Positions 1,242 through 32,000 are shown, counted from the first letter of the stretch. The stretch is 32,000 nucleotides of DNA from Clostridia bacterium (GCA_017450465.1 JAFSUW010000006.1:3117-35116); one strand, 5' to 3'. Made by a program: numbers and translations. Notes: a model not told the origin generated them from the sequence alone.

Positions 1242-3359
1242 TTATCTTCCAAAATCATCACCAAGCACACGCAAATCGACTTGCTGATGCCATCTGCCTA
1301 CTTCTGTTGAAGTTTCTGCTACTATTTCCTCTCCTAAATCTATTCCTTTTGCTATCTCTTTAAGAGGAGTTACCACATCATTTACAAAATTCTCTTTAGT
1401 TACATCATTTCCACTTTTAGTTACGCTTCCCATTACACTGTTATACCAATATGCTGCTACCGCTTTCGCTAATCCTACATCTTCTTTAGATGATATGCTT
1501 TGCGTCTTTACATTTAACGCTTCATTACAAGCGTTTTCAAAATCTATAAACCAATCAGATGCCTTTACCTTACCATCTCTTTTTTCTGCTAATGCTTCAA
1601 TTTCTCTTTCTTCTAATTTTACACAAAAATTTGCAAAATCATTTAATTCTTCATACGAATAAACTCCCAAATTATTAGTAAGTCTATAAAATTTATCATA
1701 TGATTCAACATTTGCTTTTGCTTTTGCTAAATAATTATCTTTTTCTGCTTGCGTTAAATCCATATTAGGAATAACCTCTAAATAACCTTCATTCTTGCTT
1801 TTGCCATTAGCATATTCTTCTAAACGTGAATTTATTACACCCTTAGATTCATTCTCATCTTTTGCAGCAGCAAATGCTTGCCAAAAAGTAATATCACCTT
1901 GCAAAACTTCAATTTGTGCCTGTTCCGAATTTGCAAAAAATAACCTTACTTCATCCATACATTTAGTTAATTTAATATATTCTATTAACACATTTTCTCC
2001 AGCTTCTTGTCCAAACTGTGAAACAAGTTCTTTACGTAAATTAAGGAAAAAGTCACCTTTCATCGATTTTACTTCTTCCATCCTATCCATACCTATCAAA
2101 CATTCGAAATGCTCATACATGTTCTCGTCTCTCTGATATGACATATACTCATACATACCATTTTCATATAATTTATATTCTTCATTTATAGATACACTAT
2201 CACTATCCATAAACAACATATATTTACTACTCTCAACATTATCTTGTGCAAAATCTTCTCCTCTTGCTGCACTTCCTTCAATTAAAGAACTGGTTGCAGC
2301 TGAATGCGATGCAGAAAGTATAGATTCAAAGCCGGTGTCCATAGCATGTCTTATTTCATGGGAAAGAATTTTAACCATTAAATTTTCATCACTACTTTTA
2401 ACAATATTCAAATTTTGTGTTTGCGTGTTATACACTGCAGGAGTTGAATTATCTATCTCGTATTCTTTAGCTTCAGGTGAATTAAGATCATAAATATTAA
2501 TTTCATTTATGTTATTTTCAACTGCATCTCTAAATTTTGATAGATATTCATCTTTCGACACTTTATTATTGGCATAGGTCGAATCATAATGTTTATCAAT
2601 ATTGTTATATACTGTTATTATGTAATTATTTATTTCTTCGGAAAAGCCACGCTTTTGCAATATAGTTTTTAATTCTTCAAGCCCTTTTTGTTGTTCTTTT
2701 TCTAATCTTTCTTGCTCTTGCCTTTCCTTTTCTTGCCTTTCTTTTTCTAGTCTTTCTTGCTCTTGCCTTTCCTTTTCTTGCCTTTCTTTTTCTAGTCTTT
2801 CTTGCTCTTGTCTTTCCTTCTCTTGCCTTTCTTTTTCTAGTCTTTCTTGCTCTTGTCTTTCCTTCTCTTGCCTTTCTTTTTCTAGTCTTTCTTGCTCTTG
2901 TCTTTCCTTCTCTTGTCTTGCTTTTTCTTCAGCTTCTTTCTTTGCCTTTTCCTCGGCCTCTTGTCTTGCCTTTTCTTCGGCTTCTTTCTTTGCCTTTTCT
3001 TCAGCCTCTTTCTTTGCCTTTTCTTCGGCTTCTTTCTGTGCCTTTTCTTCGGCTTCTTGTTTTGCTTTTTCTTCTACATCATCCTTAGTTTCTTCTTTAG
3101 TTTCAACTTTCGTTTCTTCTATATCATGTTCACCTGTTTCAAAGCCAACACCTTCTAATGCCTCTTCATATTGGGTTTCTATATCTACATTAGCTACAGT
3201 TTCTAAATTATCTTCCGGTCTTTCTGGTTCTTGTGGCTCAGGTAATCCCTCTTTTGCACAACCATTATTAGGCATCAAAACAGTGATAGCTGCAAGCCCC
3301 GTAGCTACCCATTTAGTAAATCTTTTGAAAATACTATTCTTCTTTTTTTCTTCAGGCAT
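1242..3359 (-). CDS. Exported or membrane-anchored repeat protein with an E/K-rich coiled-coil region and a C-terminal domain containing an HExxH motif
   Basis: The likely start is MPEEKKK at 3359 (RBS GGGAGG 7 nt upstream) rather than the track start at 3374. There is a hydrophobic N-terminal segment ending NNGC, which is a weak lipobox. Repeats are 8-aa AEEKAKKE units and five 15-aa ERQEKERQEQERLEK units. An SHEIRHAMD motif is present. Confidence 0.6.
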   Translation of the reverse strand: MPEEKKKNSIFKRFTKWVATGLAAITVLMPNNGCAKEGLPEPQEPERPEDNLETVANVDIETQYEEALEGVGFETGEHDIEETKVETKEETKDDVEEKAKQEAEEKAQKEAEEKAKKEAEEKAKKEAEEKARQEAEEKAKKEAEEKARQEKERQEQERLEKERQEKERQEQERLEKERQEKERQEQERLEKERQEKERQEQERLEKERQEKERQEQERLEKEQQKGLEELKTILQKRGFSEEINNYIITVYNNIDKHYDSTYANNKVSKDEYLSKFRDAVENNINEINIYDLNSPEAKEYEIDNSTPAVYNTQTQNLNIVKSSDENLMVKILSHEIRHAMDTGFESILSASHSAATSSLIEGSAARGEDFAQDNVESSKYMLFMDSDSVSINEEYKLYENGMYEYMSYQRDENMYEHFECLIGMDRMEEVKSMKGDFFLNLRKELVSQFGQEAGENVLIEYIKLTKCMDEVRLFFANSEQAQIEVLQGDITFWQAFAAAKDENESKGVINSRLEEYANGKSKNEGYLEVIPNMDLTQAEKDNYLAKAKANVESYDKFYRLTNNLGVYSYEELNDFANFCVKLEEREIEALAEKRDGKVKASDWFIDFENACNEALNVKTQSISSKEDVGLAKAVAAYWYNSVMGSVTKSGNDVTKENFVNDVVTPLKEIAKGIDLGEEIVAETSTEVGRWHQQVDLRVLGDDFGR
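2697..3075 (-). repeat. In-frame coding tandem repeats: 45-bp unit x5 (about 2697-2921) followed by a 24-bp unit x6-7 (about 2922-3075)
   Basis: Near-identical copies of ttttctagtctttcttgctcttg(c/t)ctttcctt(t/c)tcttgcctttct are visible directly. They encode the ERQEKERQEQERLEK and AEEKAKKE repeats. Confidence 0.85.
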
Positions 3360-3411
3360 TTTTATTCCTCCCAATGCTACTATTATACCATATTTATGTT
3401 AACTTTTCAAA

Positions 3412-6194: not shown

Positions 6195-7082
6195 CTACTG
6201 CCTTATTATTTCTTTTTTTGCTAACGCCCACTTTGTTCCTGTTCCTACTAGTGTTGAACCACAATAACTACATGTTTGCGAGGATGCATCTTCTATTTTT
6301 GCTCCACAATTTGGACAAGTTGTTACATCTACCTTCTTACTTACAAATGTTAATTCATATGCTACTAAATTATCAGCCCCTGCATCACCACGAAGTACAT
6401 TTCCTGTATATCTATCTACTACATAGTCTTTTTGCCTTACCATTAATGCTATCCTTACTGTTATTAAATCATTATCTTCATTTACACCTATTGCATCTAT
6501 ATCTTCTAAATTTATATCTCGCATTATATTTTGCTGCTTATTTAATTCAAGCGCTTCTAACTGCATTTTATATGTATTATATAACTCATCGATTGTTAAT
6601 TCACGAAGTGTTTTATAATCAAAATTTGACCATGCAATTTGTACTCGTTTATATATATCAAATGCTTGTTCATTCGAAAAACCATACTTTAATATTTCTT
6701 CTTGCGGTATTGGACAAATTTTGATATCTCGTTTTGAATTACCTTGATAATTTGCTTTATTTCCCGAATCTTTATAAGATATCGAAATAAGTAAACCTAT
6801 AATAATAAATGCAACAATAGATCCACAGAAAAAAACAACAATAAATATAATAAAACTAATTATCTCACTTGGATTAAAATTTGTGTATGAACTTGAACCA
6901 CTATGTGAACTTGAACTGCTACGCGAACTTGAACTACTATGCGAACTTGAACTACTATGTGAGCTGCTACTACTCCAACTACTTCCAGAATCATAGCTAT
7001 AATCCCAACCAGAATCAGCAAGTGAAGTCGTAAGAGAAAATGTTAAAATAAAAATAAATACCACAATAAATAGTTTTTTCAT
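6195..7082 (-). CDS. Tim44-like domain protein with signal peptide, poly-Ser/His region, TM helix and C-terminal zinc ribbon
   Basis: The likely start is MKKLFIVV at 7082 (RBS AAAGGAG). It has SSSSHSSSSS repeats. The Tim44-like core is FDIYKRVQIAWSNFDYKTLRELT...VRQKDYVVDRYTGNVLRGD. The ribbon is CPNCGAKIEDASSQTCSYCGS. Confidence 0.65.
   Translation of the reverse strand: MKKLFIVVFIFILTFSLTTSLADSGWDYSYDSGSSWSSSSSHSSSSSHSSSSSRSSSSSHSGSSSYTNFNPSEIISFIIFIVVFFCGSIVAFIIIGLLISISYKDSGNKANYQGNSKRDIKICPIPQEEILKYGFSNEQAFDIYKRVQIAWSNFDYKTLRELTIDELYNTYKMQLEALELNKQQNIMRDINLEDIDAIGVNEDNDLITVRIALMVRQKDYVVDRYTGNVLRGDAGADNLVAYELTFVSKKVDVTTCPNCGAKIEDASSQTCSYCGSTLVGTGTKWALAKKEIIRQ
6889..6978 (-). repeat. 18-bp coding tandem repeat x4-5 encoding SHSSSS units
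   Basis: gaacttgaac(c/t)(a/g)cta(t/c)g(t/c) units are visible at 6889, 6907, 6925 and 6943. Confidence 0.8.
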
Positions 7083-7127
7083 TTGTATACTCCTTTTGTC
7101 CAAATTAATCCTTCTATCAACAATTAA

Positions 7128-7730
7128 TTATATTATTTCTTCTTTTTTAGCAATAAACCACTTATCATCTTGCTTTATAAAAGTAAGCGAATAAACATCT
7201 CTATGACTTTCAAATTGGTTCCCACTTAAAACTTCGCCTGTTTTCAAATCTATAACAAAATCTTTTTGATTAATTGACATATTTACTTCTATAGTAGTAA
7301 CACCATTGTTCGTAGATGCTTGTAGTATCTCAAAATCATTGCTTATTATATCTCTTAACACATTTTGTTGTTGTTTCATATTAAGTGCATCTAATTGAAG
7401 TTTTAGTGTATTATAAAGCTCAGGAGTTGTTAAACTTTGTAACGAAGCATAATCAAAATTTGACCATGCTATTTCCAAATTTTTAAATAATGTAAATGCT
7501 TCTTCAAAACTAAAGCTATATTCTTTTAAATTATCTATTTCATTACTAAATAATAGTTGTCTTTCATCTGTTACTTCTTCATATTCTTTATCAAATTTAT
7601 GAACTTTACCAACTAATTTGCATATTAAATTAACAACCGGAATTACTAAAATCATCACAATTGGTAAAATATAATAAAGCATAACATAAATTAATGCTAA
7701 AGCTGCTCCATTTTCATCTTTATCAGGCAT
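7128..7730 (-). CDS. Membrane-anchored Tim44-like domain protein
   Basis: It has an N-terminal TM segment. The core FTLFKNLEIAWSNFDYASLQSLTTPELYNTLKLQLDALNMKQQQNVLRDI is paralogous to the 6195-7082 product. Confidence 0.65.
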   Translation of the reverse strand: MPDKDENGAALALIYVMLYYILPIVMILVIPVVNLICKLVGKVHKFDKEYEEVTDERQLLFSNEIDNLKEYSFSFEEAFTLFKNLEIAWSNFDYASLQSLTTPELYNTLKLQLDALNMKQQQNVLRDIISNDFEILQASTNNGVTTIEVNMSINQKDFVIDLKTGEVLSGNQFESHRDVYSLTFIKQDDKWFIAKKEEII

Positions 7731-7851
7731 TTATCACACCTCACTAATATAATCTCCAATATTTTTATCGGCAATTTTCCTATGAATTTTATAAAGTTTT
7801 CTGTTTATTTAAAACAATTAATATTAATAGCTATAAAGTAATAAATAAAAA

Positions 7852-7877
7852 AAGATTCGTATCTTAATACGAATCTT
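7852..7877 (-). terminator. Bidirectional rho-independent terminator after the SPFH gene
   Basis: An 11-bp perfect stem (aagattcgtat / atacgaatctt) has a 4-nt loop and is flanked by an A-run and a T-run. Confidence 0.75.
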
Positions 7878-7890
7878 TTTTTTATTAAAA

Positions 7891-9213
7891 TTAGTCTATT
7901 TGTGTTCCACAATTTGTGCAGAATTTACCAATTGCTTCTGTTCCACATTTTGGACATACTCTCTTTTGTGGTACTACTGGTGCTTCATATTTTGTTCCAC
8001 ATTCACCACAGAAATTACCTGCAACTTGAGCTCCACAATTTGGGCAAATCTTTCCGCCTAAATTTTCTGGCGCTGGTGTTGTTTGTGCTGGTTTATCCCA
8101 AGCCATCTTTGCTGCTCCAGGTGCGTTAGGAGCTGCTGCTACTGGGGTATCCCATCCCATTCTTGCAGGGCCAGGTGCACTTGGAGTTTGTGCTGCTGCA
8201 GCTGCCTGAGGATTTGGTTGCATTGGAGCTGCTCCGCCAAATGCTCCTGCTGTTGCATTACCAAAGGCACCGCCGCTTGCCATGCCCATCATTCCTACTC
8301 CCATAAATCCATTCATTGTACCGTTTGGATTGTTTGCTGCATCTTCTATAGCATTTGCATAAGAACCAACAAGTGTACCTTGTTGTTGATATGCGTCTCC
8401 ACCGATTTCGTATTTATTAATCTTTTCATTTGATTCATCATCAAGTGTTAAGCTTTCAACTATAAATGATACAATCTTTAAACCCCTATCTCTAATTGGT
8501 TGGTCAAATACTGCAGTATCCATTATTTGTTTAATTTCATCAGTTTTGTTTGGAAGCTCTAATACTTCTATTTTATATTGGTCACTACCTAAACTGTTCA
8601 TAACGTTTACAAATGAACCAATAACTTCTGCTCTAATTTGTTCTGTTAAATCTTCCTTTTTGTAAACTTCTGATAGACCAGCTATCTTTGACATAAATAC
8701 AAAAGGATCAGCAATTTGGAATGTATATGTTCCAAAGCATTTTACCTTTACGCTCATAGCGAGATATGAGTTTGTTCTTGCATTCATTATTGGGTGGCCC
8801 CAATCTTTATATGGAACTGGATTTGGTGTTCCAAATTTGTTACCAATTATTTCTTTTGTGTTGAAGAAGTAAACAGCTTGTTCTTTTGCTGTTGCTCCAT
8901 TAAATGTGAAACGTTGCCACATTTCTTTGAACATCTCACCAAATTGTCCTGCAAATAATGATGGTGTAGATGATGTATCGAATGTATAGAAACCTTCTTC
9001 TGCTGTTGCATCTACAATTCGACCATTATCATATATGATTGCTCCTTGACCAGGTCCAACAATTACAACACTCTTGTTTGAAATAACTCCTGTTGGTGTT
9101 GTTTTCTTAACCATAAGTATGTCATTACCCATTTCTTCACAACGTATGGCCTCTTTCCATTGGTCTTGCAATGTGCTTCCTATGGCACCTGCTGCTGCTC
9201 TTATTAATCCCAT
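7891..9213 (-). CDS. SPFH/Band-7 family protein of the YdjI/COG4260 type with a low-complexity linker and two C-terminal zinc ribbons
   Basis: The N-terminus MGLIRAAAGAIGSTLQDQWKE...ILMVKK...VIVGPGQGAIIYDNGRIVD is typical of YdjI-like SPFH proteins. An Ala/Gly/Pro-rich linker follows. Ribbons are CPNCGAQVAGNFCGECGT and CPKCGTEAIGKFCTNCGT. Confidence 0.7.
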   Translation of the reverse strand: MGLIRAAAGAIGSTLQDQWKEAIRCEEMGNDILMVKKTTPTGVISNKSVVIVGPGQGAIIYDNGRIVDATAEEGFYTFDTSSTPSLFAGQFGEMFKEMWQRFTFNGATAKEQAVYFFNTKEIIGNKFGTPNPVPYKDWGHPIMNARTNSYLAMSVKVKCFGTYTFQIADPFVFMSKIAGLSEVYKKEDLTEQIRAEVIGSFVNVMNSLGSDQYKIEVLELPNKTDEIKQIMDTAVFDQPIRDRGLKIVSFIVESLTLDDESNEKINKYEIGGDAYQQQGTLVGSYANAIEDAANNPNGTMNGFMGVGMMGMASGGAFGNATAGAFGGAAPMQPNPQAAAAAQTPSAPGPARMGWDTPVAAAPNAPGAAKMAWDKPAQTTPAPENLGGKICPNCGAQVAGNFCGECGTKYEAPVVPQKRVCPKCGTEAIGKFCTNCGTQID

Positions 9214-9324
9214 AATTAATACCTCCTATATATTTTTATTGTAGTTTCATTTTTTATAAAGCAAATATATTATATCGTTTTTTGTCGATTTATGCAATAT
9301 GTAAAATTTCGAATAGTTTTTCTG

Positions 9325-10893
9325 TTAAACGTAATTACACGTACCTATGAACGCCCAACCAGCTTTTGTACCATCATAATCAACAACAACATCGTTATAA
9401 TTTATTGGCTGACTAGGAGGTACATTACCTACATACACACATAATTTTTTGTTTACACCATCACTTATTGATAATACATAAAACTTGCTTGGTTCATTAT
9501 TAAAAGATTTTGCTTTATATTTATCAGATATATATGCTGGGCATAAACCTTCTAGCGTATTATATTCAACTGGTGTTGTAGGCAGAACTCTTTCTCCATA
9601 ATCAGAGTCAGTTGCCCAAATTATTATTGCTCGATATATTTGTTCTGCTTTAACCTTATCGACTAACCATGTTTCCATATAATTCACTTTTTTACCTGTT
9701 TTATCTATATAAAAACCCTCTCCTTTTTTCTCTACTTCTGCTATTCCTTCATCAAATTCTTCTGCATTATCATATTTACATTCCACCACTTCTTCGCCAT
9801 TCGTATTTATATAACCCCATTTATCATTTTTACATACTGCAGCCATTCCTTCATTAAATTCTTCTGCATCATCATATTTACATTCCACCACTTCTTCACC
9901 ATTCGTATTTATATAACCCCATTTGTCATTTTTACATACTACAGCCATTCCTTCATTAAAACCTCCTGCCCAATCATATTTACATTCCACCACCTCTTCA
10001 CCATTCGTATTTATATAACCCCATTTGTCATTTTTACATACTGTAGCCATTCCTTCATTAAAAGCCCCTGCATAATCATATTTAAATTCTATTACTTCTT
10101 CACCATTCGTATTTATATAACCCCATTCTCCATCTTTTCTAGCTTTTACTAATCCTTCACTAAAAGTATCTACATATTCATATTTACATTCAATTATTTC
10201 TTCTCCAGCTACATTTATAAAACCCAACTTATCTCCTTTTTCTACTCTTGCAAATCCTCCATCAAAATGCCATGCATCATCATATTTACATTCAACTATT
10301 TCTTCTCCTTGTTCATTTATATAACCATATTTCCCATCCTTTTTTACTACTGCCATTCCTTCACTAAATTTAGATGAATAGTCATATTTAGATGGTACAT
10401 TTCCACCTATCTCTACTGTACGAGAAATTGCATTCCAATTTATATTAATGCCAAGTACTTCACCTATTGCTCTAAGCGGTAAATATGTACTACCTTCTAT
10501 TACCACTACTGGTTTGTCTGTAGCCCATTTTTCCCCATCTATAAATATTGGAAAACTAGCATCTACTGCTTCATAATGGCTTTTAATTTTGGCGTTACTT
10601 ATTTCAACTTTTCTAACCTCATTTTTGGAGCTACTATCAATCTCTACTCTATGAAGAGCCTCATTCCAATTCACATTAACGCCAAGTACTTCACCTATAG
10701 CCCTTAATGGTAAATACGTACTATTATCTATAAGTAAAATCGGTTTATTTGTTTCCCAAATTTCTCCACTAATTATTATTGGGAAATTTGCTATAAATGC
10801 ATCATAGGTTGCTGCCAAAGATACTATAGTATTAAAAGCTAATATGCCCACTAATAAACTACTAAAAAGCAATTTTTTAACTTTACTCCTCAT
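9325..10893 (-). CDS. Secreted WG (KWG) repeat protein with two copper-amine-oxidase-N-terminal-like domains
   Basis: The likely start is MRSKVKKLL at 10893 (RBS GGGAGG). STYLPLRAIGEVLG(V/I)N(V/I)NWN occurs twice. There are about 7 repeats of DKWGYINTNGEEVVECKYD. Confidence 0.75.
   Translation of the reverse strand: MRSKVKKLLFSSLLVGILAFNTIVSLAATYDAFIANFPIIISGEIWETNKPILLIDNSTYLPLRAIGEVLGVNVNWNEALHRVEIDSSSKNEVRKVEISNAKIKSHYEAVDASFPIFIDGEKWATDKPVVVIEGSTYLPLRAIGEVLGININWNAISRTVEIGGNVPSKYDYSSKFSEGMAVVKKDGKYGYINEQGEEIVECKYDDAWHFDGGFARVEKGDKLGFINVAGEEIIECKYEYVDTFSEGLVKARKDGEWGYINTNGEEVIEFKYDYAGAFNEGMATVCKNDKWGYINTNGEEVVECKYDWAGGFNEGMAVVCKNDKWGYINTNGEEVVECKYDDAEEFNEGMAAVCKNDKWGYINTNGEEVVECKYDNAEEFDEGIAEVEKKGEGFYIDKTGKKVNYMETWLVDKVKAEQIYRAIIIWATDSDYGERVLPTTPVEYNTLEGLCPAYISDKYKAKSFNNEPSKFYVLSISDGVNKKLCVYVGNVPPSQPINYNDVVVDYDGTKAGWAFIGTCNYV
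9745..10360 (-). repeat. 102-bp (34-aa) coding tandem repeats; four near-identical copies plus degenerate ones
   Basis: catatttacattccaccac(t/c)tcttc recurs at 9771, 9873 and 9975, with a variant at 10077. Confidence 0.85.
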
Positions 10894-10987
10894 AACTTTT
10901 CCTCCCATAAATAAAATATTACTCCATTAATGTGTATCGGCATTCTGAAAATTTATTTAATGTTTAATTTTAAATTAAGCATTATAT

Positions 10988-11123: not shown

Positions 11124-14100
11124 CTACGATCTTTCAATTTTGCTACCTTCTTCGGTTTTTACTACTTCAATGCTTTCTTTAAATCGTGCCTTCATTGCGG
11201 CATCATGTGTTATCGCCATTACTTTTATGTTTTTATAACGTTCTCCTATAGTGTTTAAGGCATCACAATACGCCTCTACGCCCTCTTCATCCAAAAATGG
11301 TGGTTCATCTATAAATAACATTCCTAGCTGAACTCCTGCACAACTTGCTTTTATTTCGGCAAGTGCTATTATTGAAGAAAGTGCCGCCTTTACCTTTTCT
11401 CCACCAGATTTTGATAAGTATGGTAGTATACCTATTCCTTCTTCTTTTATAAATATATCTAATGTAACAACCTCTTTTTTGTTACTCTTTAGTACCTTTT
11501 CTGTCCTAAATTCAAGTTCAGTTTTTCCTGATGTCATATTGCCTAATATATTGTTTGCCGTCTTTGTTAATACTGGTATGACAGAAGATACAATATTATG
11601 CGGAATTCCGTCTTGTGAAAACGCTATTTTTAATGTCTCATAAATTGATATCTTATGATTTAATTCTTTTATTTCTTTCTTAAGTGATTCTAAATTATCT
11701 TTTTTGCTTACTAAATCTTTCTGCCTTTGCAAAATTGCGCCAAGTTCTTTACTATAATTACTATGTACCTCTTTTTGTGAATTTATATCAGCCGTAAGAG
11801 TTGTTACTTCTTCAGTAATTTTTTCGATTCCATCAGTTTCACCACTTAATTTTGTTATGTCGGTCATAACTTTTTCATGCTGCTTTAATAAATCTACTTT
11901 GTTACTTCGAAGTTCCTCTATCCTCGATTTTGCATTATTTATTCTTTCCGTTGCAACTGGTAGCATCTTTTCATCTTCAGCAAAATGTTCGTATTCAGCT
12001 ATATCTTTTTTTAGCACATCATACTCTTTTAACATACCTTCATACTGTGATAATTCTTTTGACATATCATTAAGTTTTTTTAGTATAGTAGCATGATTAT
12101 CTAGTTCATTATCAAGTAATGCTTTTTGTTGATTTATTGAACTTAAAAGAACTTGTGCTTTTTGCTTTTCAAGAACTAATGCTTCAAATTCATGCATGCC
12201 ACTTTCAAGCTTAGATAATTTAGCTTTTAAGTCATTTACTATATTAGTATCATAGTTTAATTTTTCTATTGTGGCTTTTACACTAACACCTTTTTCTTTA
12301 AGCAGATTTAACTTTTCTTCATAGTAAGTATTTAATCTTGCTATTTCATTTTCAAGCGGTTCTATATCTATTTCTGCTTTCTTTGCATTAGATAAAAACT
12401 TACAGTTTGCATTTTTTATATCAATGCAATTACTACTTTTTAATATAGCTACTTTTTCTTTTAATGCTTTTAATTGTTCTGTTTTGGGTGCTATTTTTTC
12501 AGCAAACTCTTTATTGAGTGCAGAATATTCTTCACGTACCTTAACTAATTCATTGTTTAATTTTACATACTCTTCCGACTTCAAATTCATTTTTTCATAT
12601 TCTATTTTTGTTAAATTATACTCATCAGATACTGCCTTTAATTCTTTTTCACGAGCCAAATTTTTGTTTATTTTTTCATACTCAATATTACTTTTCTTAT
12701 ACTCATCTTCAAATTTTTTGCAAAGCAAATTAGATTTGTTTTCTTCATCTTTGCGCTCATTATAAAGCTTATCTAATGAGTCATAAGATTTCTTTGCACT
12801 TAAAAATTCTTTCTCTTTTTCAAGTAAATCTTTGTATTTTTTTAAGCCAAGTTTTATTTGTGATTCTTTGTTTAGTATTTTACTATTTTCATCTGCAATT
12901 TTATTAAAATCTACAATGCTTTTTTCTGTTTCATCTACTTTTAATAGCAATTTACTTGCTTCTTCTTTTAATCTATTTACTTCTTTTAACGCGTTTTCTT
13001 TGTTAAGTAGCTGCATATTTAATTTTTCGCGTTTTAGCTCATCGATATCTATTTTGGCTTTTACATCTTTTATTTTTACATTATATTCTTCTACACTTGC
13101 TTTTGTACTATCAAGTTCAGATAAAACACTATCTAATTCTGCTATTTTATCCGAACTATTGTTATACTCACGATTTAAGTCAGTAAGTATATTACGAACT
13201 TTATTTTCCATTGTGTCATATATAGAAAGGCCCAATATACTATATAGAGTATTCATCCTGCTTTCTACATCAGATTGCAAAAATAGGCCATACTGGTCTT
13301 GCATTATAAGGGCACAACTCTTAAAAGTCATGCTATCCATGCCAATAATATTTATGATTTCGTTTTGAGTATCTTTTACTTTTTCTTTGGATAAGTTTTG
13401 CCAATCATCATTCAAAAATTCAGATAAATTTAATGTGGCTTTTCCACTTTTAGTTCTTGTCCTTGCCACTTTAAATAATCTCTCGCCAATCTTAAATGTA
13501 AAAATAATACTACCACTTTTGGCATCAGATTTAATCCAGCCAGTTAAATCATTTTCACGTGGTTCTTCATAAAGTGCATCTAAAATAGCATCCATGAAAA
13601 ATGACGATTTACCAGAACCATTTTTGCCATTGATTACACAAAAACTTATTTTAGAAAAATCAAACGATTCTTCTAAATAATTTCTATAATTTTTTACTTC
13701 TAGAGAAACCGGTTCAAAAACACCATGCACACCTTTTGCCTCTTGCTCAGCTAAAGTATCTGTTATTATTTCTTTGGCTAAATTTAGTGTATCGTCATCG
13801 TATTTATTTTTGTCTTTTAAATATATTTTTAAGTTAGTAAATGGATCAGTTTCTTCATAAACTTTTTCTTTACCAAGCGATGTATTTTCATTTTTTTGCG
13901 TTATAGAATTTACAAAAAATGATCCTAAATCGTATAACTTTTTTTCAATAGTAGATTTGTTAAGTAAATTAGAAATTTCATCATCACATTCATACTCGAT
14001 GCGCACCATCTTATCGTTTACATCACTAAACTCGAAACTACCTTCAATTAATTCTTGAACATCGCTACTCGTTAAGCTTATGGTTTCTAACTCTCTATAT

Positions 14101-15114: not shown

Positions 15115-15278
15115 TTGTTATTCTCCTTTTATCTTTTGATAAATTTAGTATATATTTTTTATTTTAAAAAGTAAATGGTAATTATTAAAAATAAATTTTG
15201 TATATGATGTTGACATAAAACAAACTGTGCATCTGCTTGAATTGTGATCCTATAAACATTTGGTATTCTACATAATTG

Positions 15279-15326
15279 TGGTCAATTGCCCCCGTCCCCA
15301 TTGACAAGTCTGTCCCCCGTGACAAC
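15279..15326 (+). repeat. Copy B of the ~48-bp C-rich repeat seen at 201-248
   Basis: tggtcaattgcccccgtccccattgacaagtctgtcccccgtgacaac aligns with ttgtcagttgcccccgtcccttctgacaagcctgtccccgttgaccac. Confidence 0.7.
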
Positions 15327-15354
15327 ATAAAAAATAGAGGTGATACCTCTATTT
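15327..15354 (-). terminator. Terminator of the GHL10-like gene
   Basis: The stem aatagaggt/acctctatt has a 3-nt loop and a T-run on the minus strand. It lies 4 nt after the stop at 15358. Confidence 0.65.
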
Positions 15355-27336: not shown

Positions 27337-27882
27337 TTAATATTCTTGCTTAAAAAAAGAAATAATAGTTCTTCCATACTTTCTTGAATCGCATTTTACC
27401 AAATTTCCTACTTTATCTTGTACATCATCTTTTTCATCAATTTCTACAACTACTATTGCGTCTTCGCTTAATTTATCATTTAGCATACCCAAAGCAATAG
27501 TCTCTATATCTTTTGAATATGGTGGATCAATAAAAACCAAATCAAATTTTTTATTTTCTAATTTTTTTAATGCTACTTTATAATCTAAATTTATGACTTG
27601 GGATTTATCTTCTTCACCGCATAACGAAATGTTCTTTTTTACAATGTCTGCTGCTTTCTTATCGCTATCTATAAAAACGCATTCTTTTGCGCCACGACTC
27701 AATGATTCAAGACCTAGTGCGCCACTTCCCGCAAACATATCTAAAACAACCGCATCAATTACCTTTGTACTTAAAATATTAAACAACGATTCCTTAACTC
27801 TATCTGCTGTTGGACGCGTTATGTCAAAACCATCTAAAGTTAAAAGCTTTCTGCCTCTATGTTTTCCTGAAATAATTCTCAT
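27337..27882 (-). CDS. rsmD: 16S rRNA (guanine966-N2)-methyltransferase RsmD
   Basis: Motifs are MRIISGKHRGRKL, RPT.DRVKESLFNIL, DMFAGSGALGLE and FIDPPY. Confidence 0.85.
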   Translation of the reverse strand: MRIISGKHRGRKLLTLDGFDITRPTADRVKESLFNILSTKVIDAVVLDMFAGSGALGLESLSRGAKECVFIDSDKKAADIVKKNISLCGEEDKSQVINLDYKVALKKLENKKFDLVFIDPPYSKDIETIALGMLNDKLSEDAIVVVEIDEKDDVQDKVGNLVKCDSRKYGRTIISFFKQEY

Positions 27883-27962
27883 AATATTATTCCTTCATTT
27901 ATTTTTTCATTTACATTTTATAATATTGATATCTAAACTGCAAGTTTTTTTATAAAATATAC

Positions 27963-27994
27963 AAAAAAAAGACACCAAACCGAAGTTTAGTGCC
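27963..27994 (-). terminator. Terminator cassette copy 1 (after paralog P1)
   Basis: The minus-strand RNA ggcacuaaac-uucg-guuugguguc is followed by U8. It lies 11 nt after the P1 stop. It is near-identical to the hairpins at 30236-30261 and 31940-31963. Confidence 0.75.
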
Positions 27995-28005
27995 TTATGT
28001 TATGT

Positions 28006-28647
28006 TTAGCCAACTGCTTTAATTACGACTGCGGGGCTCGTGATGAGCTGAATAAGATTCTCGTCACGTTTGGCATACGCGTTTCTGCGGAACATCGCGA
28101 TTTCTCCCCTATCTCCCATAAAGCCGCCGTACGTTACGAAGTTGTCTTCTCCGTTTCTTGCGATACGTACCGTATTACCGGCGCCATCAGCAAAGAGGCC
28201 ATCTACGCATCGTACACCACTTTTTTCGAAAACATGATGTGCTGTGGGAGAATCGATGTAGTTTCCTACATAACGGCTGTTGTCACAACCATCGTGGAAA
28301 CTTACAAGACCATGTGCTACACGGTATCCATACCACACAAGAAGTTCGCTCTCCGTGGCAATGTCAGAATGCTTTTCGCCCTCATGGAAGAACTTTTTGG
28401 CCTTCTTACGCCAGGCCTTAAAAGAAAGTCCACGAAAAACCTCGGCACCACTCTTGAAAGTGAGATCACCCTTCTCAGAAATCGAGGGCTCTACGGTAGA
28501 AATCCAGTAGTCATAATTTACTTCCGCCCTTGCCGCACGAACAGATTTGATAAACTTAATCTGCCGTCCGGTACGCGGAGAAGCTTCCTCAAGCCACTGA
28601 TCTACCTCTTCTCTTTCAGTAGGACCTACAAAGAAGAAGTTGTCCAT
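28006..28647 (-). CDS. Paralog P1 of the uncharacterised family (213 aa; most divergent copy)
   Basis: It aligns with P2-P4 at FFFVG..ERE.V..WL, Y.YWI..VEP, ELLVWYGYRVA, CDNS..VGNY.DSP and FADGAGNT. RBS AAGGAGG is present. It starts 9 nt after the P2 stop. Counted lines are 50-52% G+C. Confidence 0.8.
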   Translation of the reverse strand: MDNFFFVGPTEREEVDQWLEEASPRTGRQIKFIKSVRAARAEVNYDYWISTVEPSISEKGDLTFKSGAEVFRGLSFKAWRKKAKKFFHEGEKHSDIATESELLVWYGYRVAHGLVSFHDGCDNSRYVGNYIDSPTAHHVFEKSGVRCVDGLFADGAGNTVRIARNGEDNFVTYGGFMGDRGEIAMFRRNAYAKRDENLIQLITSPAVVIKAVG

Positions 28648-28656
28648 ACATCCTCC

Positions 28657-29301
28657 TTAGCTCTTCTTAATTACAACAACTCCAACAAAGTGACGTGCAG
28701 AGAAGTTGTAATTTTCCTCAAACCTGTACATTGCCACAGGATGGTTCTTACCACAACTCTTATACGAACCACCTACCAAGGCAATGCTCTTAAAGGCAGG
28801 CGACATAACTACCTTAGTAGTATTGCCTACTCCGTCGGCAAATCCACCAATGACGCGGCTATTCGTGGATTCAATTTCATGGCTGCTCGTAGGTGAATCT
28901 TCAAAATTCCCAAGAGCCGAACTGTCATCGCACACATACTCGATGGCCCAATAACCTTCGGCAACTCTATATGCGTACCAGAGCATAAGCTCATAAAGAG
29001 TAGCAAGTTCAGAGTGCCATTCACCATCGTCGAAGTAAGTTTTTGCCACCGCGGGCCACCTGGCAACCTTGATTTTACGCACGATTTCTTCACCGGGCTT
29101 GTAGACAAGGTTGTAATCGTCATCAAACACGGGCTCAATCGTTGCGATGAAGTACTCATATTTGATTGCCTTGAGTGCCCATCTCACAGTTCTTAAAAAA
29201 TCCTGTTGGTTATCCGAATACGCTTCTTCATTCTTCTCCAACCATTCACGTACTTTCTTGCGTTCTTTTTTCCCCATATGGAAGAAATATCTTTGGTTCA
29301 T
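28657..29301 (-). CDS. Paralog P2 of the uncharacterised family (214 aa from the ATG at 29301)
   Basis: Motifs are MNQRYFFHMGKKERKKVREWL, IEP, ELMLWYAYRVAEGYW, VCDDSSALGNFEDSP, GGFADGVGNT and VGGSY, ending VGVVVIKKS. RBS AAAGGA lies 6 nt before 29301. The track start at 29319 is less likely. Confidence 0.8.
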   Translation of the reverse strand: MNQRYFFHMGKKERKKVREWLEKNEEAYSDNQQDFLRTVRWALKAIKYEYFIATIEPVFDDDYNLVYKPGEEIVRKIKVARWPAVAKTYFDDGEWHSELATLYELMLWYAYRVAEGYWAIEYVCDDSSALGNFEDSPTSSHEIESTNSRVIGGFADGVGNTTKVVMSPAFKSIALVGGSYKSCGKNHPVAMYRFEENYNFSARHFVGVVVIKKS

Positions 29302-29386
29302 GACACGTCCTTTCTGCATTGTGCATATATTTACGCTTTCCTCAGCTACTATACTTTGCCGATTTTTGCCGTTTGCAAAAACATAA

Positions 29387-29395
29387 TTATTATAT
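29387..29395 (-). promoter_or_regulatory. Extended -10 box TGATATAAT upstream of the P2-P1 operon
   Basis: The reverse complement of attatatca lies about 85 nt upstream of the P2 start. Confidence 0.35.
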
Positions 29396-29433
29396 CATAT
29401 TAATTATGTAAAGTAAAGAAAAATTTCTTAACA

Positions 29434-29459
29434 CAAAAAGAGCCGAACCTAAGTTCAGC
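29434..29459 (-). terminator. Terminator after P3, overlapping its stop codon
   Basis: The minus-strand stem gcugaac-uuag-guucggc (one G-U pair) is followed by CUCUUUUU. Confidence 0.55.
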
Positions 29460-30114
29460 CCTCATTTTTATTTGGTCGTTCTCTAACAACTAAAACTGCT
29501 GTACTATTTATCTTCAAAATATCAAACGCTGGTGCCAAAGGAAAATAGTATGCCACAGGATAAACTTGACCAAATGCTTCAACGTCTCCTCCACAGAGTG
29601 CATAAGACCTTTCTGCTTGCACAAGTTTCATTGTGTTACCTACTCCGTCCGAAAAACCTCCGACCATTTTAATACCCGATAAATCAATTTTATGCGAACT
29701 TCCCGGAGAATTTTTATAATTACCTTCACTGCTACTGTTGTCGCAAATAAACGAAAGTGTCCACATTCTCCTTGCAACTCGATAACCATACCATAAAAAT
29801 AATTCATCCAAATTTGAAATTTTGGAGTACCACGATGAAGTATTAAAATATTCAGAAGCTTTTTTTATCCACTCTTGTAACGAATGTCCAGTAGCTACTT
29901 TTTTACCCTTGCCATAAAAAATCTCACCGTTATCCGAAAACGAAGGTTCAATAGTCGCAATTTTATACGAATAGTTTATTCTCTTAACTGCTTTTTCGAC
30001 GTTACTTACAAAACGTACCTGATGCACAGCCGGTTTTACTGTTTTTAACCAGTCTTCGACTTCCTTAATTTTTGCTTCGTCCATTTCAAAAAAGTAATTA
30101 AGTTTGTCTTCCAT
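29455..30114 (-). CDS. Paralog P3 of the uncharacterised family (219 aa; lowest G+C copy)
   Basis: Motifs are YFFEMDEAKIKEVEDWL, IEP, ELFLWYGYRVA, ICDNSSSEGNYKNSP, GGFSDGVGNT and CGG, ending AVLVVRERPNKNEG. RBS is GGGAGGACGT. A counted line is 38% G+C. Confidence 0.8.
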   Translation of the reverse strand: MEDKLNYFFEMDEAKIKEVEDWLKTVKPAVHQVRFVSNVEKAVKRINYSYKIATIEPSFSDNGEIFYGKGKKVATGHSLQEWIKKASEYFNTSSWYSKISNLDELFLWYGYRVARRMWTLSFICDNSSSEGNYKNSPGSSHKIDLSGIKMVGGFSDGVGNTMKLVQAERSYALCGGDVEAFGQVYPVAYYFPLAPAFDILKINSTAVLVVRERPNKNEG

Positions 30115-30142
30115 GATATACGTCCTCCCGCCTTGCGGCTAT

Positions 30143-30172
30143 TTAACAACTCCAAAAGAAATCTTTTGGCAT
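30143..30172 (-). other. 9-codon upstream ORF (MPKDFFWSC) with a strong RBS; possible leader peptide or relic 5' end of a lost paralog
   Basis: This is my manual translation. GGAGGAG lies 7 nt before the ATG at 30172. The xxDFF start resembles the family N-termini (MDNFFF, NYFF, GFFF). Confidence 0.3.
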
Positions 30173-30195
30173 AACTTTTCTCCTCCGATATTTTT

Positions 30196-30204
30196 ATTTT
30201 AGCA
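30196..30204 (-). promoter_or_regulatory. Extended -10 box TGCTAAAAT upstream of P3
   Basis: The reverse complement of attttagca lies just downstream of the P4 terminator. Confidence 0.3.
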
Positions 30205-30224
30205 TAATTATTTTTTTATTACAA

Positions 30225-30261
30225 TTAAAAAAACAGGCACCAAACCCGAAGGTTTAGTGCC
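30225..30261 (-). terminator. Terminator cassette copy 2 (after paralog P4)
   Basis: The minus-strand RNA ggcacuaaacc-uucg-gguuuggugcc (11-bp stem, one G-U pair) is followed by a U-run. It lies 8 nt after the stop at 30270. Confidence 0.75.
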
Positions 30262-30269
30262 TTAACATG

Positions 30270-31070
30270 TTATTTTTCTGTTCTTCTCAAAACGATTTTG
30301 CCGCTTGCGTAGTCATCGGTAAGATCAGATCTTTCATACTGGTGCAGAGTATATACCGGGACATACTTCCCAGAATCTCTACAGTATCCTCCGACATACG
30401 CATATTTGCGCTTGTTCTTGATAATTTTGCGAGTGTTCCCGATACCATCTGCAAAGCCACCGACTTCCGTCTTACCAGCACGTGTAAACACTCTTACACC
30501 ATCCGGTGAATCGCGATAATTTCCGGCCGACGAACTGTCATCGCAGACATACTCAATTGTCCAATAACCTCTTGCCACACGATACGCATACCAAAGCGTA
30601 AGCTCGTTAAGCGTTGCCAGATCCGACTGCCAAAAACCATTACTGAAATACTCTGTCGCCATGTATTTCCAGTGCTCAGGCGAATATTTACGAGCTACTT
30701 CCGACCCTTCGGAAAAATAGATATACCCAGTTTTCGGATTAACCGACGGCTCGATACACGAAATCTGAAAGTCGTAATCAACAGTTTCTAATGCTCTCCC
30801 TGTGACTTCTGCGAATATCTGCTGCTGAACTGTCTTAGGAGTAAAACCTTTAAGCCATTTTTCTACAATATCACGTTCATGTTGCCCCATAAAGAAAAAT
30901 CCCTGCTGTGCCATCTCAAAACGATATCCATTCAACTGATAATGTGCTACTTCACCTAATGCATCCTCAACAGAAAAACCTTCATCGGATATCTTAATCG
31001 TTGCTTCGCCCACTTTGATCACGGCTTTATCTATCTCGATAGTATTGCCGTTTACTTCTATTTTTGTCAT
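30270..31070 (-). CDS. Paralog P4 of the uncharacterised family (266 aa; extra ~53-aa N-terminal extension)
   Basis: The core is GFFFMGQHERDIVEKWL, IEP, ELTLWYAYRVARGYW, VCDDSSSAGNYRDSP, GGFADGIGNT and VGGY, ending GKIVLRRTEK. RBS GGAGG lies 4 nt before the ATG. A counted line is 45% G+C. Confidence 0.8.
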   Translation of the reverse strand: MTKIEVNGNTIEIDKAVIKVGEATIKISDEGFSVEDALGEVAHYQLNGYRFEMAQQGFFFMGQHERDIVEKWLKGFTPKTVQQQIFAEVTGRALETVDYDFQISCIEPSVNPKTGYIYFSEGSEVARKYSPEHWKYMATEYFSNGFWQSDLATLNELTLWYAYRVARGYWTIEYVCDDSSSAGNYRDSPDGVRVFTRAGKTEVGGFADGIGNTRKIIKNKRKYAYVGGYCRDSGKYVPVYTLHQYERSDLTDDYASGKIVLRRTEK

Positions 31071-31147
31071 ACGTCCTCCATGTTTTTATTTAGTGTTTAA
31101 ATACGTCCTCAGTTTTACTGATTTCATATATAAAACTCATGGAATAT

Positions 31148-31156
31148 ATTTTATCA
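31148..31156 (-). promoter_or_regulatory. Extended -10 box TGATAAAAT upstream of P4
   Basis: The reverse complement of attttatca lies between the tcdA stop and the P4 start. Confidence 0.3.
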
Positions 31157-31172
31157 CATTGTTTACATAAAA

Positions 31173-31880
31173 TCAACCGTTTGACAAAATATCCTTTACT
31201 ACCTCACTTGCAATAATTAAGCCAGCAACTGATGGTACGAAAGAAATACTACCTGGGACATGTTTATTATTTGAACTCGTTAATTCCACTAATGGTTTTA
31301 TCGGTTCTTCTTTCGAATAAACAACTTTTAACGAATCTATATTTCTTTCCTTTAATTCTTTTCTCATAACCTTTGCTAGTGGGCAAATACTTGTTTTATA
31401 TATATCTGTCACTTCAAACTTTGTGGGATCTAATTTATTACCCGTACCCATACTAGAAATTATAGGAATGTTTAATTCTTTTGCCCTTATAACTAATTCT
31501 ATCTTAGCTGTAATTGTATCAATAGCATCTACGATATAACTTAAATCACTTTCAATTATTCCTTTAGTTTCGGGCATAAAAAATTCTTTATAAACTTCTA
31601 CATTCGCATTTTTATTAATTTCCAATATTCTTTCTTTTGCTACATCAACTTTATATTGTCCAATGGTACTATTTAATGCTATTAGTTGCCTATTTAGGTT
31701 AGTTATACTTACCGTATCGTTATCCACTAAAACAAAATTACCAACACCTGCTCTTGCTAGTGCTTCAACTACATACGAACCTACTCCACCTATTCCAAAA
31801 ACTGCAACTTTGGCTCTTTTAAGCTTCTCTATATTTTCTTTACCTATTAAAATTTCCGTTCTTAAAAATTGACTCTCCAT
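31173..31880 (-). CDS. tcdA: tRNA threonylcarbamoyladenosine dehydratase (ThiF/E1-like, TcdA/CsdL type)
   Basis: It contains KVAVFGIGGVGSYVVEALARAGVGNFVLVDNDTVSITNLNRQ, and its size of 235 aa fits. Its base composition is native and low in G+C. Confidence 0.8.
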   Translation of the reverse strand: MESQFLRTEILIGKENIEKLKRAKVAVFGIGGVGSYVVEALARAGVGNFVLVDNDTVSITNLNRQLIALNSTIGQYKVDVAKERILEINKNANVEVYKEFFMPETKGIIESDLSYIVDAIDTITAKIELVIRAKELNIPIISSMGTGNKLDPTKFEVTDIYKTSICPLAKVMRKELKERNIDSLKVVYSKEEPIKPLVELTSSNNKHVPGSISFVPSVAGLIIASEVVKDILSNG

Positions 31881-31932
31881 TATTATCTCCCTTTCCTAGT
31901 TTATTATATAGTAAACCTGTATATATGTAAAC

Positions 31933-31963
31933 AAAAAAAGACACTAAACCGAAGTTTAGTGCC
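31933..31963 (-). terminator. Terminator cassette copy 3 (after the truncated gene at the window edge)
   Basis: The minus-strand RNA ggcacuaaac-uucg-guuuaguguc is followed by U7. It lies 6 nt after a TAA at 31970-31972. Confidence 0.7.
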
Positions 31964-31969
31964 TAAAAC

Positions 31970-32000
31970 TTATTCCTTTATCACGAGTATTCCTGTGCAA
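31970..32000 (-). CDS. 3' end of a gene truncated by the window edge; probably a fifth paralog (P5)
   Basis: My manual translation is ...CTGILVIKE*. This matches the family C-terminal strand (AVVIKAVG, VGVVVIKKS) and is followed by the family terminator cassette. Confidence 0.35.
   Translation of the reverse strand, partial: CTGILVIKE

Follow-up and report, generated by a model that had tools for sequence, protein, structure and literature searches.

A probably non-diversifying array of paralogs from a protein family that diversity-generating retroelements target in related gut Clostridia

Introduction

In Mtd, TvpA and other variable proteins of the C-type-lectin (CLec) fold, which are targets of diversity-generating retroelements (DGRs), the C-terminal segment forms the ligand-binding surface. 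Guo et al. (2011) reported that DGR targets need a hairpin or cruciform 4–34 bp downstream of the variable repeat (VR); in phage DGRs this hairpin has a 7–10-bp GC-rich stem and a 4-nt GRNA loop, and in BPP-1 the sequence of the stem is not critical (PMC3240598). In Treponema denticola there are target genes that were left behind without a reverse transcriptase (RT) or template repeat (TR) (PMC4891356), and cyanobacterial DGRs diversify CLec domains of intracellular regulatory proteins (PMC7517822). Here we describe an array of five paralogous minus-strand genes, P1 to P5, in a 32,000-nucleotide stretch of DNA from a Clostridia bacterium (GCA_017450465.1 JAFSUW010000006.1:3117-35116; hereafter the window, in whose coordinates features are given). 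The genes belong to a family that DGRs rewrite in related gut Clostridia, and the array itself is probably a set of fixed, non-diversifying paralogs of this CLec-fold variable-protein family.

The DGR mechanism, the target fold, DGRs with several or with remote targets, and remnant targets are already known. New are the family itself, which has no model in the libraries searched and is minimal in size and leaderless; its link to a very large clade of DGR RTs in gut Clostridia; and the contrast between targets that are rewritten and an array that is hard-wired.

Diversification of the family in related gut Clostridia

The paralogs P1 (28006..28647, 213 aa), P2 (28657..29301, 214 aa), P3 (29455..30114, 219 aa) and P4 (30270..31070, 266 aa) align end to end with 44 invariant columns and show 32–37% identity to P1 (36–41% in local BLASTP). 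P5 is represented in the window by its last 10 codons including the stop (31970..32000), the remainder lying past the window end; these match the end of L009:8505-9101, on a 69.7-kb European Nucleotide Archive (ENA) contig of the same genome that is 100% identical to the window and supplies the whole gene. Among themselves all five are 27–41% identical in local BLASTP alignments. A hidden Markov model (HMM) of the family matches P1, P2 and P3 with E-values of 9e-76, 1e-90 and 5e-88, and P5, the most divergent paralog, with an E-value of 8e-49.

This family supplies the variable protein that DGRs target in related gut Clostridia. The clearest layout is that of locus L019, in which a family gene (7075-7863) is followed by bAvd (8223-8585; PF22296), an RT (8578-9591; RVT_1), a 122-nt TR rich in AAC and AAT codons (9600-9721), and a second family gene, P0154 (10001-10792). 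The RT is 33% identical to Brt of BPP-1 over its full length (E = 1e-55) and carries YMDD and LGxxxSQ motifs. The TR matches the 3′ ends of both flanking family genes as well as remote copies in L013, L003 and L008, and BLAST comparison adds matches in L007 and L014; at least five VRs match this one TR. In six VRs the mismatches to the TR fall at TR adenines in 16/16, 18/18, 19/19, 14/15, 19/20 and 16/16 cases (102/104 together), and adenines account for 36 of the 122 TR bases. P0154 lies on a 123,842-bp contig; for the RT and the L013-type proteins P0153 and P0155 a contig of equal length is on record, and we infer that all are on the same one. Targets at least 10 kb from the RT occur in the related genome, and the metagenome-assembled genome (MAG) RGIG9151 contains at least six family genes.

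Locus L013 has three tandem family copies (a, b and c) that are about 91% identical in DNA sequence. Their differences cluster in the ∼80 nt before the C-terminal strand (alignment columns 528-607) and are mostly at the first two codon positions, with the third staying C or T, as in NNC and NNT codons; beyond this segment the copies are perfectly identical for about 90 nt, a stretch that takes in the stop codon and a hairpin.

A second DGR, whose RT is 75% identical to the first, has the same layout and was found on many contigs, including one from a mouse-gut sample. In loci L027 to L030 its bAvd (PF22296) and RVT_1 genes adjoin a family member of 242–250 aa (HMM E-values 1e-81 to 1e-92). The TR/VR mismatches in L030 are at TR adenines in 15/15 cases, and the VR sequence is unlike between samples (L029 versus L030). 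Among the 337-aa DGR RTs of gut Clostridia, a large clade with more than 5,000 homologs, are members that diversify this family. Across the family the VR-equivalent is the least conserved block, with a column entropy of 3.1–3.7 bits as against 1.5–1.9 bits in the core motifs.

The VR of L027, which is the same in L029, is T-rich, shorter and in another frame relative to that of L030. It lies at L027:5435-5534 and is 100% identical to a TR-like copy at 7462-7561, just downstream of the true A-rich TR; positions 6950-7308 are duplicated at 7378-7716. The TR-like copy looks like a duplicated TR region that took on the VR sequence.

Absence of a diversification imprint in the array

The VR-equivalents of the array are on the minus strand between the conserved GG and the C-terminal strand, at approximately 28033..28122 in P1, 28684..28767 in P2, 29500..29586 in P3 and 30303..30386 in P4, where the segment falls in the most variable block of the family alignment. 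We aligned them by codon to the L019 TR, scoring 84 non-A positions (81 for P5) and the third bases of 19 A-containing codons. Active VRs are identical to the TR at 83–84 of the 84 non-A positions and at 19/19 third bases, and one L013 copy is partly decayed (74/84 and 17/19). The corresponding scores are 28/84 and 6/19 for P1, 43/84 and 9/19 for P2, 36/84 and 3/19 for P3, and 34/84 and 7/19 for P4; in P5, 39/81 non-A positions are identical. The VR-equivalents of P1 to P5 include K, E, Q and M codons that are not derivable from AAY codons (Y being C or T), with K, M and E codons in that of P2, and none of the five has the GC-rich 3′ element of VRs. No TR-like repeat was seen in the 32-kb window, and tblastn of the window and L009 (together about 41 kb) revealed no RT or Avd homolog.

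Four other assemblies (L009 to L012), which may not be independent samples, carry the 4.7-kb array with 100% identity, and a Logan variant of P1 (P0001) has a single residue change, which is outside the VR. Each window paralog resembles some gene of another genome more closely than it does its array neighbours; the closest external relative of P2 is the DGR-linked gene in L019, at 47% identity. Locus L020 has an ortholog of P4 (51%) and then one of P3 (67%, partial, 133 aa) in the same order, with a GC content equal to that of its flanks, and P4 diverges about evenly from its L020 ortholog, at ∼45% identity in the VR-equivalent and 51% overall. Because the paralogs are nearer to genes of other genomes, the L020 pair is present, and divergence is even, the array appears to be old and to be evolving by ordinary substitution. 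A first-pass annotation of this DNA, made from the sequence alone, had regarded the array as fast-diverging at a fixed slot, and these same three observations contradict it.

Could the window copies still be active targets on which DGR cassettes in other parts of the genome, one or several, act in trans? The remote tandem targets of L013 that match the L019 TR show that such service occurs at a distance, the target-type hairpin is almost unchanged after P1, P4 and P5 (see below), and the visible portion of the genome amounts to about 41 kb. However, the five VR-equivalents are unlike in both sequence and length and so five different TRs would be required. The missing GC-rich 3′ element, the codons outside the reach of AAY mutagenesis, the identity of four assemblies, the position of the one change in the P1 variant, and the lack of excess VR divergence relative to the L020 ortholog all argue in the same direction, and we judge service in trans to be quite unlikely.

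Predicted fold

From an alignment of 97 family sequences, AlphaFold2 gave a model of P4 with a pLDDT of 91.8 and a pTM of 0.82; a model from six sequences (pLDDT 58) was kept out of the fold search. The first-pass annotation had named AlphaFold with Foldseek as a check, and when it was run on P4, all of the top 23 Protein Data Bank (PDB) matches were of the FGE-sulfatase/C-type-lectin-like fold. These include PorK and the DGR variable proteins TaqVP, Mtd and TvpA, together with ToxD, CalU17 and EgtB, at E-values of about 0.02–0.7, probabilities up to 0.97, and TM (template modelling) scores of 0.30–0.41 normalised to the 266-aa query. The best match among predicted viral structures, from Microcystis phage LMM01, is a protein named for a 'sulfatase-modifying factor enzyme-like domain' (probability 1.00, TM 0.46/0.49, root-mean-square deviation 4.9 Å over 189 columns), and further SUMF-like and tail-fibre proteins come next. 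The scores are modest one by one, yet the matches are all from a single fold class, and the family core of about 210 aa is predicted on this modelling to have the FGE-sulfatase/CLec fold.

The presence of EgtB, ToxD and CalU17 among the fold neighbours raises the question of whether the proteins are enzymes of the FGE or EgtB C-terminal type, not binding modules. Several polar residues are near-invariant (E107, S149, E156, R164, D208, N212 and T213 in P4 numbering), and Cys is common in the CDDSS motif of the family, which is consistent with this. Nonetheless, no sequence match to PF03781 or DUF1566 (PF07603) was found in any of the 97 members, even at E≤10, and in P5 the EP and CDDSS motifs are missing. 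Randomisation by DGRs moreover affects a segment in the functional face of the fold, which suits variable binding better than a fixed active site, and an enzymatic role is very unlikely.

Hairpins downstream of the cassettes

About 37 nt past the end of TR homology, active VRs are followed by the hairpin GGCACTAAAC-TTCG-GTTTAGTGTC and a T-run. This hairpin, altered at one to three positions, also follows P1, P4 and P5, and it occurs nowhere else in the 32 kb (chance expectation 0.00). On the minus strand, the copy after P1 (27969..27996; AAGGCACTAAAC-TTCG-GTTTGGTGTCTT plus T-run) has the same sequence as those 3′ of active VRs in L019, L013, L007 and L008; that after P4 is at 30235..30262 (AGGCACTAAACC-TTCG-GGTTTGGTGCCT), and that after P5 at 31939..31964 (AGGCACTAAAC-TTCG-GTTTAGTGTCT), just upstream of the promoter of the neighbouring tcdA-type gene. 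The hairpin after P3 (29438..29463; GAGGGCTGAAC-TTAG-GTTCGGCTCTT) is diverged and has the TTAG loop of a variant in L003. In general the element has a 10–12-bp stem with 40–50% GC, a 4-nt TTCG loop, and a T-run as in a terminator, and all four window hairpins score as intrinsic terminators. The stem is kept and the loop changed after the L020 ortholog of P4. Relative to the requirements described for DGR targets (PMC3240598), the position and geometry of the family hairpin fit, but its loop sequence and GC content do not.

An additional family hairpin is present at L013:9633-9667, directly after rsgA and upstream of the first tandem family gene; this may reflect growth of the L013 array through duplications between hairpins, or else a left-over terminator of a cassette that now serves rsgA. 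At L013:10700-10740 and 11720-11760 a second GC-rich inverted repeat, GTAGGGGACGGCGTCCTCGACGTCCC, stands right after each cassette hairpin, and the window cassettes are without it.

Organization of the array and its flanks

Most of the structural features that the first-pass annotation had described are borne out. The open reading frames (ORFs) and the alignment agree with its four full-length minus-strand paralogs and their coordinates, and every shared motif that it listed is present in the P1–P4 alignment. The fifth copy that it considered probable beyond tcdA is real, being a 198-aa ORF directly upstream of tcdA on L009. It had also noted an extra N-terminal segment in P4, which we find to be ∼55 aa long and beta-rich; P1 has no such extension. 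The gap between the P2 stop and the P1 start is 9 nt, as annotated, and P1 is the second gene in a P2–P1 operon. The promoters, ribosome-binding sites and hairpin terminators that it assigned to P3 and P4 individually were all found: there are TG-extended -10 boxes upstream of P4, P3 and P2, and GGAGGACGT-type ribosome-binding sites ahead of P4 and P3. For P2, the ATG at 29301 was preferred over that at 29319 as the start because of its AAAGGACGT ribosome-binding site.

The neighbours are likewise of the types it had named. A tcdA-type ThiF-family gene (31173..31880, minus strand; PF00899, E = 2e-42), which is not a family member, lies between P5 and P4, and the other flanking gene is of the RsmD type (PF03602). 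A search of 27800-32000 against Rfam gave no match.

Other features of the window were observed in passing. A mini-ORF of nine codons, MPKDFFWSC, lies in the P3 leader (30141-30170, minus strand); its ribosome-binding site, GGAGGAG, is strong, and the mini-ORF is not conserved in the L020 ortholog, and upstream of P4 (31070-31115, minus strand) the motif GAGGACGTAT is present twice. At 161-228 there is a perfect 29-nt GC-rich inverted repeat, TGTCAGAAGGGACGGGGGCAACTGACAAC, with a 10-nt spacer, and a related copy at 15277-15332, 15 kb away; these may be copies of a palindromic element dispersed in a genome that otherwise has 30% GC. In-frame tandem repeats of 15-nt and 24-nt units (2649-3124) occur inside the minus-strand ORF 1242-3374, and six in-frame 102-nt tandem units (9584-10368) inside the minus-strand ORF 9325-10908.

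Distribution, composition and genomic context of the family

The first-pass annotation could not place the proteins in any named domain, and neither can we by sequence. For P1 to P4, searches of Pfam, NCBIfam, PHROGs and PADLOC yielded no significant match, the sole sub-threshold one being a PADLOC CARF model to P3 (E = 0.0028, 15.5 bits). The 97 members gave nothing against Pfam at E≤0.01 and isolated stray matches only at E≤10, and profiles built from 4 and from 97 sequences matched no PDB sequence significantly. A word-indexed search found two relatives only, and the resulting picture of a tiny family of five proteins was discarded as a sensitivity artefact when 1.84 billion cluster representatives, searched exhaustively with the HMM, yielded 488 at E≤1e-3, with 122 at E≤1e-30. 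An indexed search with the 97-sequence profile gave 260 relatives, all unnamed or 'hypothetical' and all from MAGs and metagenomes; a metagenome scan for the family gave four loci only. Where sources are identifiable they are gut Clostridia, in data sets from water-deer rectum, rabbit, mouse and ruminants. A beta-rich N-terminal extension of ∼45–55 aa like that of P4 is present in about half of the 97 aligned members. None of the 97 has a hydrophobic N-terminal or transmembrane segment, in keeping with the annotated lack of signal peptides and transmembrane helices; only two segments were flagged, and both are the C-terminal strand.

The array is 37–48% GC compared with 31% in the rest of the window, and its GC at third codon positions (GC3) is 0.40 versus 0.22; P1 alone has a GC of 0.478 versus 0.315 for the window remainder. 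Family GC and GC3 are above those of the host in nearly every genome (also in L004, L013, L021, L022 and L026). In the L019 cassette, the two targets have a GC of 0.51 and a GC3 of 0.60 and the TR a GC of 0.49, with Avd and RT at a GC of 0.27–0.29 and a GC3 of 0.26–0.30. The raised GC is accordingly a property of the targets, not of an imported element, because the Avd and RT of the same cassette are GC-poor. Import of a whole DGR from a GC-rich donor was rejected for this reason, and amino-acid composition was rejected as the cause of the high GC since GC3 is raised as well.

Close relatives, either as single genes or as tandem groups, are situated where unrelated housekeeping operons end. 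They follow clpX, rsgA or gltX, adjoin coaE, or lie between an amidohydrolase and a ttcA-like gene. Among the loci examined, none had an effector or toxin beside it as a partner. A distant clade (22–28% identity to P4) resides in accessory regions of conjugative or mobilisable elements. The association with mobile elements suggested by the first-pass annotation holds for the distant clade. No family member was found in IMG/VR viral contigs, an exact search of viral contigs for the conserved VR 3′ segment found none, and tblastn against INPHARED phages and PLSDB plasmids recovered no family member; a phage- or plasmid-borne family was rejected on these grounds, at least among sequenced isolates.

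In one conjugative element, L026:7592-10795 holds four tandem diverged members of the distant clade, with a GC of 0.45–0.47 versus 0.33. Their neighbours are DUF3991-Toprim, DUF3846, MobC, a relaxase, a type IV secretion system (T4SS) coupling protein and VirB4, with no RT nearby.

These contexts bear on a further explanation, that the array is a conflict or defence module in which leaderless CLec proteins would sense or inhibit, inside the cell, the proteins of invading elements, with no DGR involved. The distant clade on conjugative and mobilisable elements, once as a four-gene tandem, is consistent with this, as are the lack of a signal peptide in any member and a composition foreign to the host in nearly all genomes. 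On the other hand, PADLOC and PHROGs give no significant match (the CARF match to P3 being sub-threshold), sequenced phages and plasmids give none, and the close relatives sit among housekeeping genes with no partner effector or toxin. The proposal is also compatible with the DGR link and merely adds a putative function to it. We regard a DGR-independent module as unlikely. The first-pass annotation had offered immunity or anti-phage arrays among its suggestions, and nothing ties the array to such systems.

Discussion

We favour the explanation that the array comprises fixed paralogs of a DGR variable-protein family, and we infer that P1 to P5 bind ligands, act inside the cell, and descend from targets that were once diversified. 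In the relatives, the bAvd–RT pair copies the 122-nt TR into cDNA with errors at adenines, and this cDNA takes the place of the final ∼120 nt of coding sequence. The replaced stretch, between the conserved GG and the C-terminal strand, would encode the ligand-binding face, and the target is presumably marked by the GC-rich element at the VR 3′ end and the 10–12-bp hairpin about 37 nt downstream. The window cassettes retain this arrangement: their C-terminal segment is variable, and after the stop codon comes the same hairpin, here doubling as intrinsic terminator; they would have lost, or never had, a matching TR and the GC-rich 3′ element, and have no adjoining RT or Avd. The array is then most likely a germline-like set of five binding proteins, arising from past duplication or acquisition of DGR targets. 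Five paralogs would therefore mean five specificities, if by analogy with Mtd and TvpA the C-terminal segment is the ligand-binding surface.

Several observations weigh against the proposal that the array is a fixed set of CLec-fold paralogs. The fold matches are individually weak (E-values of about 0.004–0.02 and TM scores of 0.34–0.49), and there is no sequence-level link to PF03781 or Mtd, the hhalign probability of the family profile against Mtd being 8.7%. The inspected portion of the source genome is 41 kb, and a DGR may lie elsewhere; the four identical assemblies are possibly from the same or related samples. The hairpin stem is near-identical across cassettes whose proteins are 35–45% identical, which is beyond the needs of a terminator and hints at a sequence-specific role, perhaps still operating, and a TTCG loop stands where phage DGR hairpins have the GRNA consensus.

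A bolder conjecture, which we think improbable as a whole, is that leaderless CLec proteins form an intracellular recognition repertoire that is DGR-diversified in some gut Clostridia and hard-wired as arrays elsewhere and on conjugative elements, and that its role would be to sense the proteins of invading elements or to neutralise them; the stem of the hairpin, with its unusual sequence conservation, would be more than part of a terminator, namely a specific handle for the Avd–RT complex or for cassette duplication.

Taking the array as a probably fixed set of DGR-family paralogs, this analysis provides a fold, predicted from modelling, and a genetic mechanism for a family whose several hundred clusters are annotated only as 'hypothetical'. 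Members of the gut-Clostridia RT clade diversify a minimal leaderless CLec protein, and can do so at as many as half a dozen loci in one genome. Two states are seen side by side, namely actively rewritten targets and deeply diverged, apparently fixed arrays that retain only the target-site hairpin, and the pairing should be useful for DGR annotation pipelines and for the study of how targets are born, duplicated and retired. The first-pass annotation had proposed the array as an undescribed system, which does not stand, as the family is a target of DGRs and their mechanism is known; its alternative of diversified binding proteins was essentially correct, the family being a DGR variable-protein target in relatives.

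Comparison with known systems

The closest described systems are those of Mtd (Bordetella phage BPP-1), TvpA (Treponema denticola) and TaqVP (Thermus aquaticus), with which the family shares a fold class by structure search. As in these systems, the VR of the relatives consists of the last ∼40 codons and is rewritten at adenines from an AAC/AAT-rich TR, beside a bAvd–RT pair, and there is a hairpin downstream of the VR. In contrast to Mtd, TvpA and TaqVP, which are 280–380 aa, the family has a core of about 210 aa; it has no detectable sequence similarity to them (the low hhalign score to Mtd and the lack of a PF03781 match noted above), and no signal peptide, lipobox or phage-tail context. 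Unlike known DGR hairpins, that of the family has a TTCG loop in place of GRNA and doubles as a terminator. The window copies differ further in being without a TR, an RT or the imprint of mutagenesis.

The array is reminiscent of T. denticola, in which homologs of DGR targets persist at loci or in genomes that lack an RT or TR, and several dispersed targets share a single TR (PMC4891356). In contrast, the window holds a five-gene array that is deeply diverged, has its order conserved in a relative, and is no recent leftover with a remaining likeness to a TR. The targets of cyanobacterial DGRs differ in another respect, since the family consists of stand-alone CLec domains with or without a beta-rich N-terminal extension of ∼50 aa, and has no kinase, NTPase or other signalling domain. 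With the multi-target cyanobacterial DGRs, however, the family has in common that its targets are cellular and not phage-borne, apparently intracellular, and several per genome.

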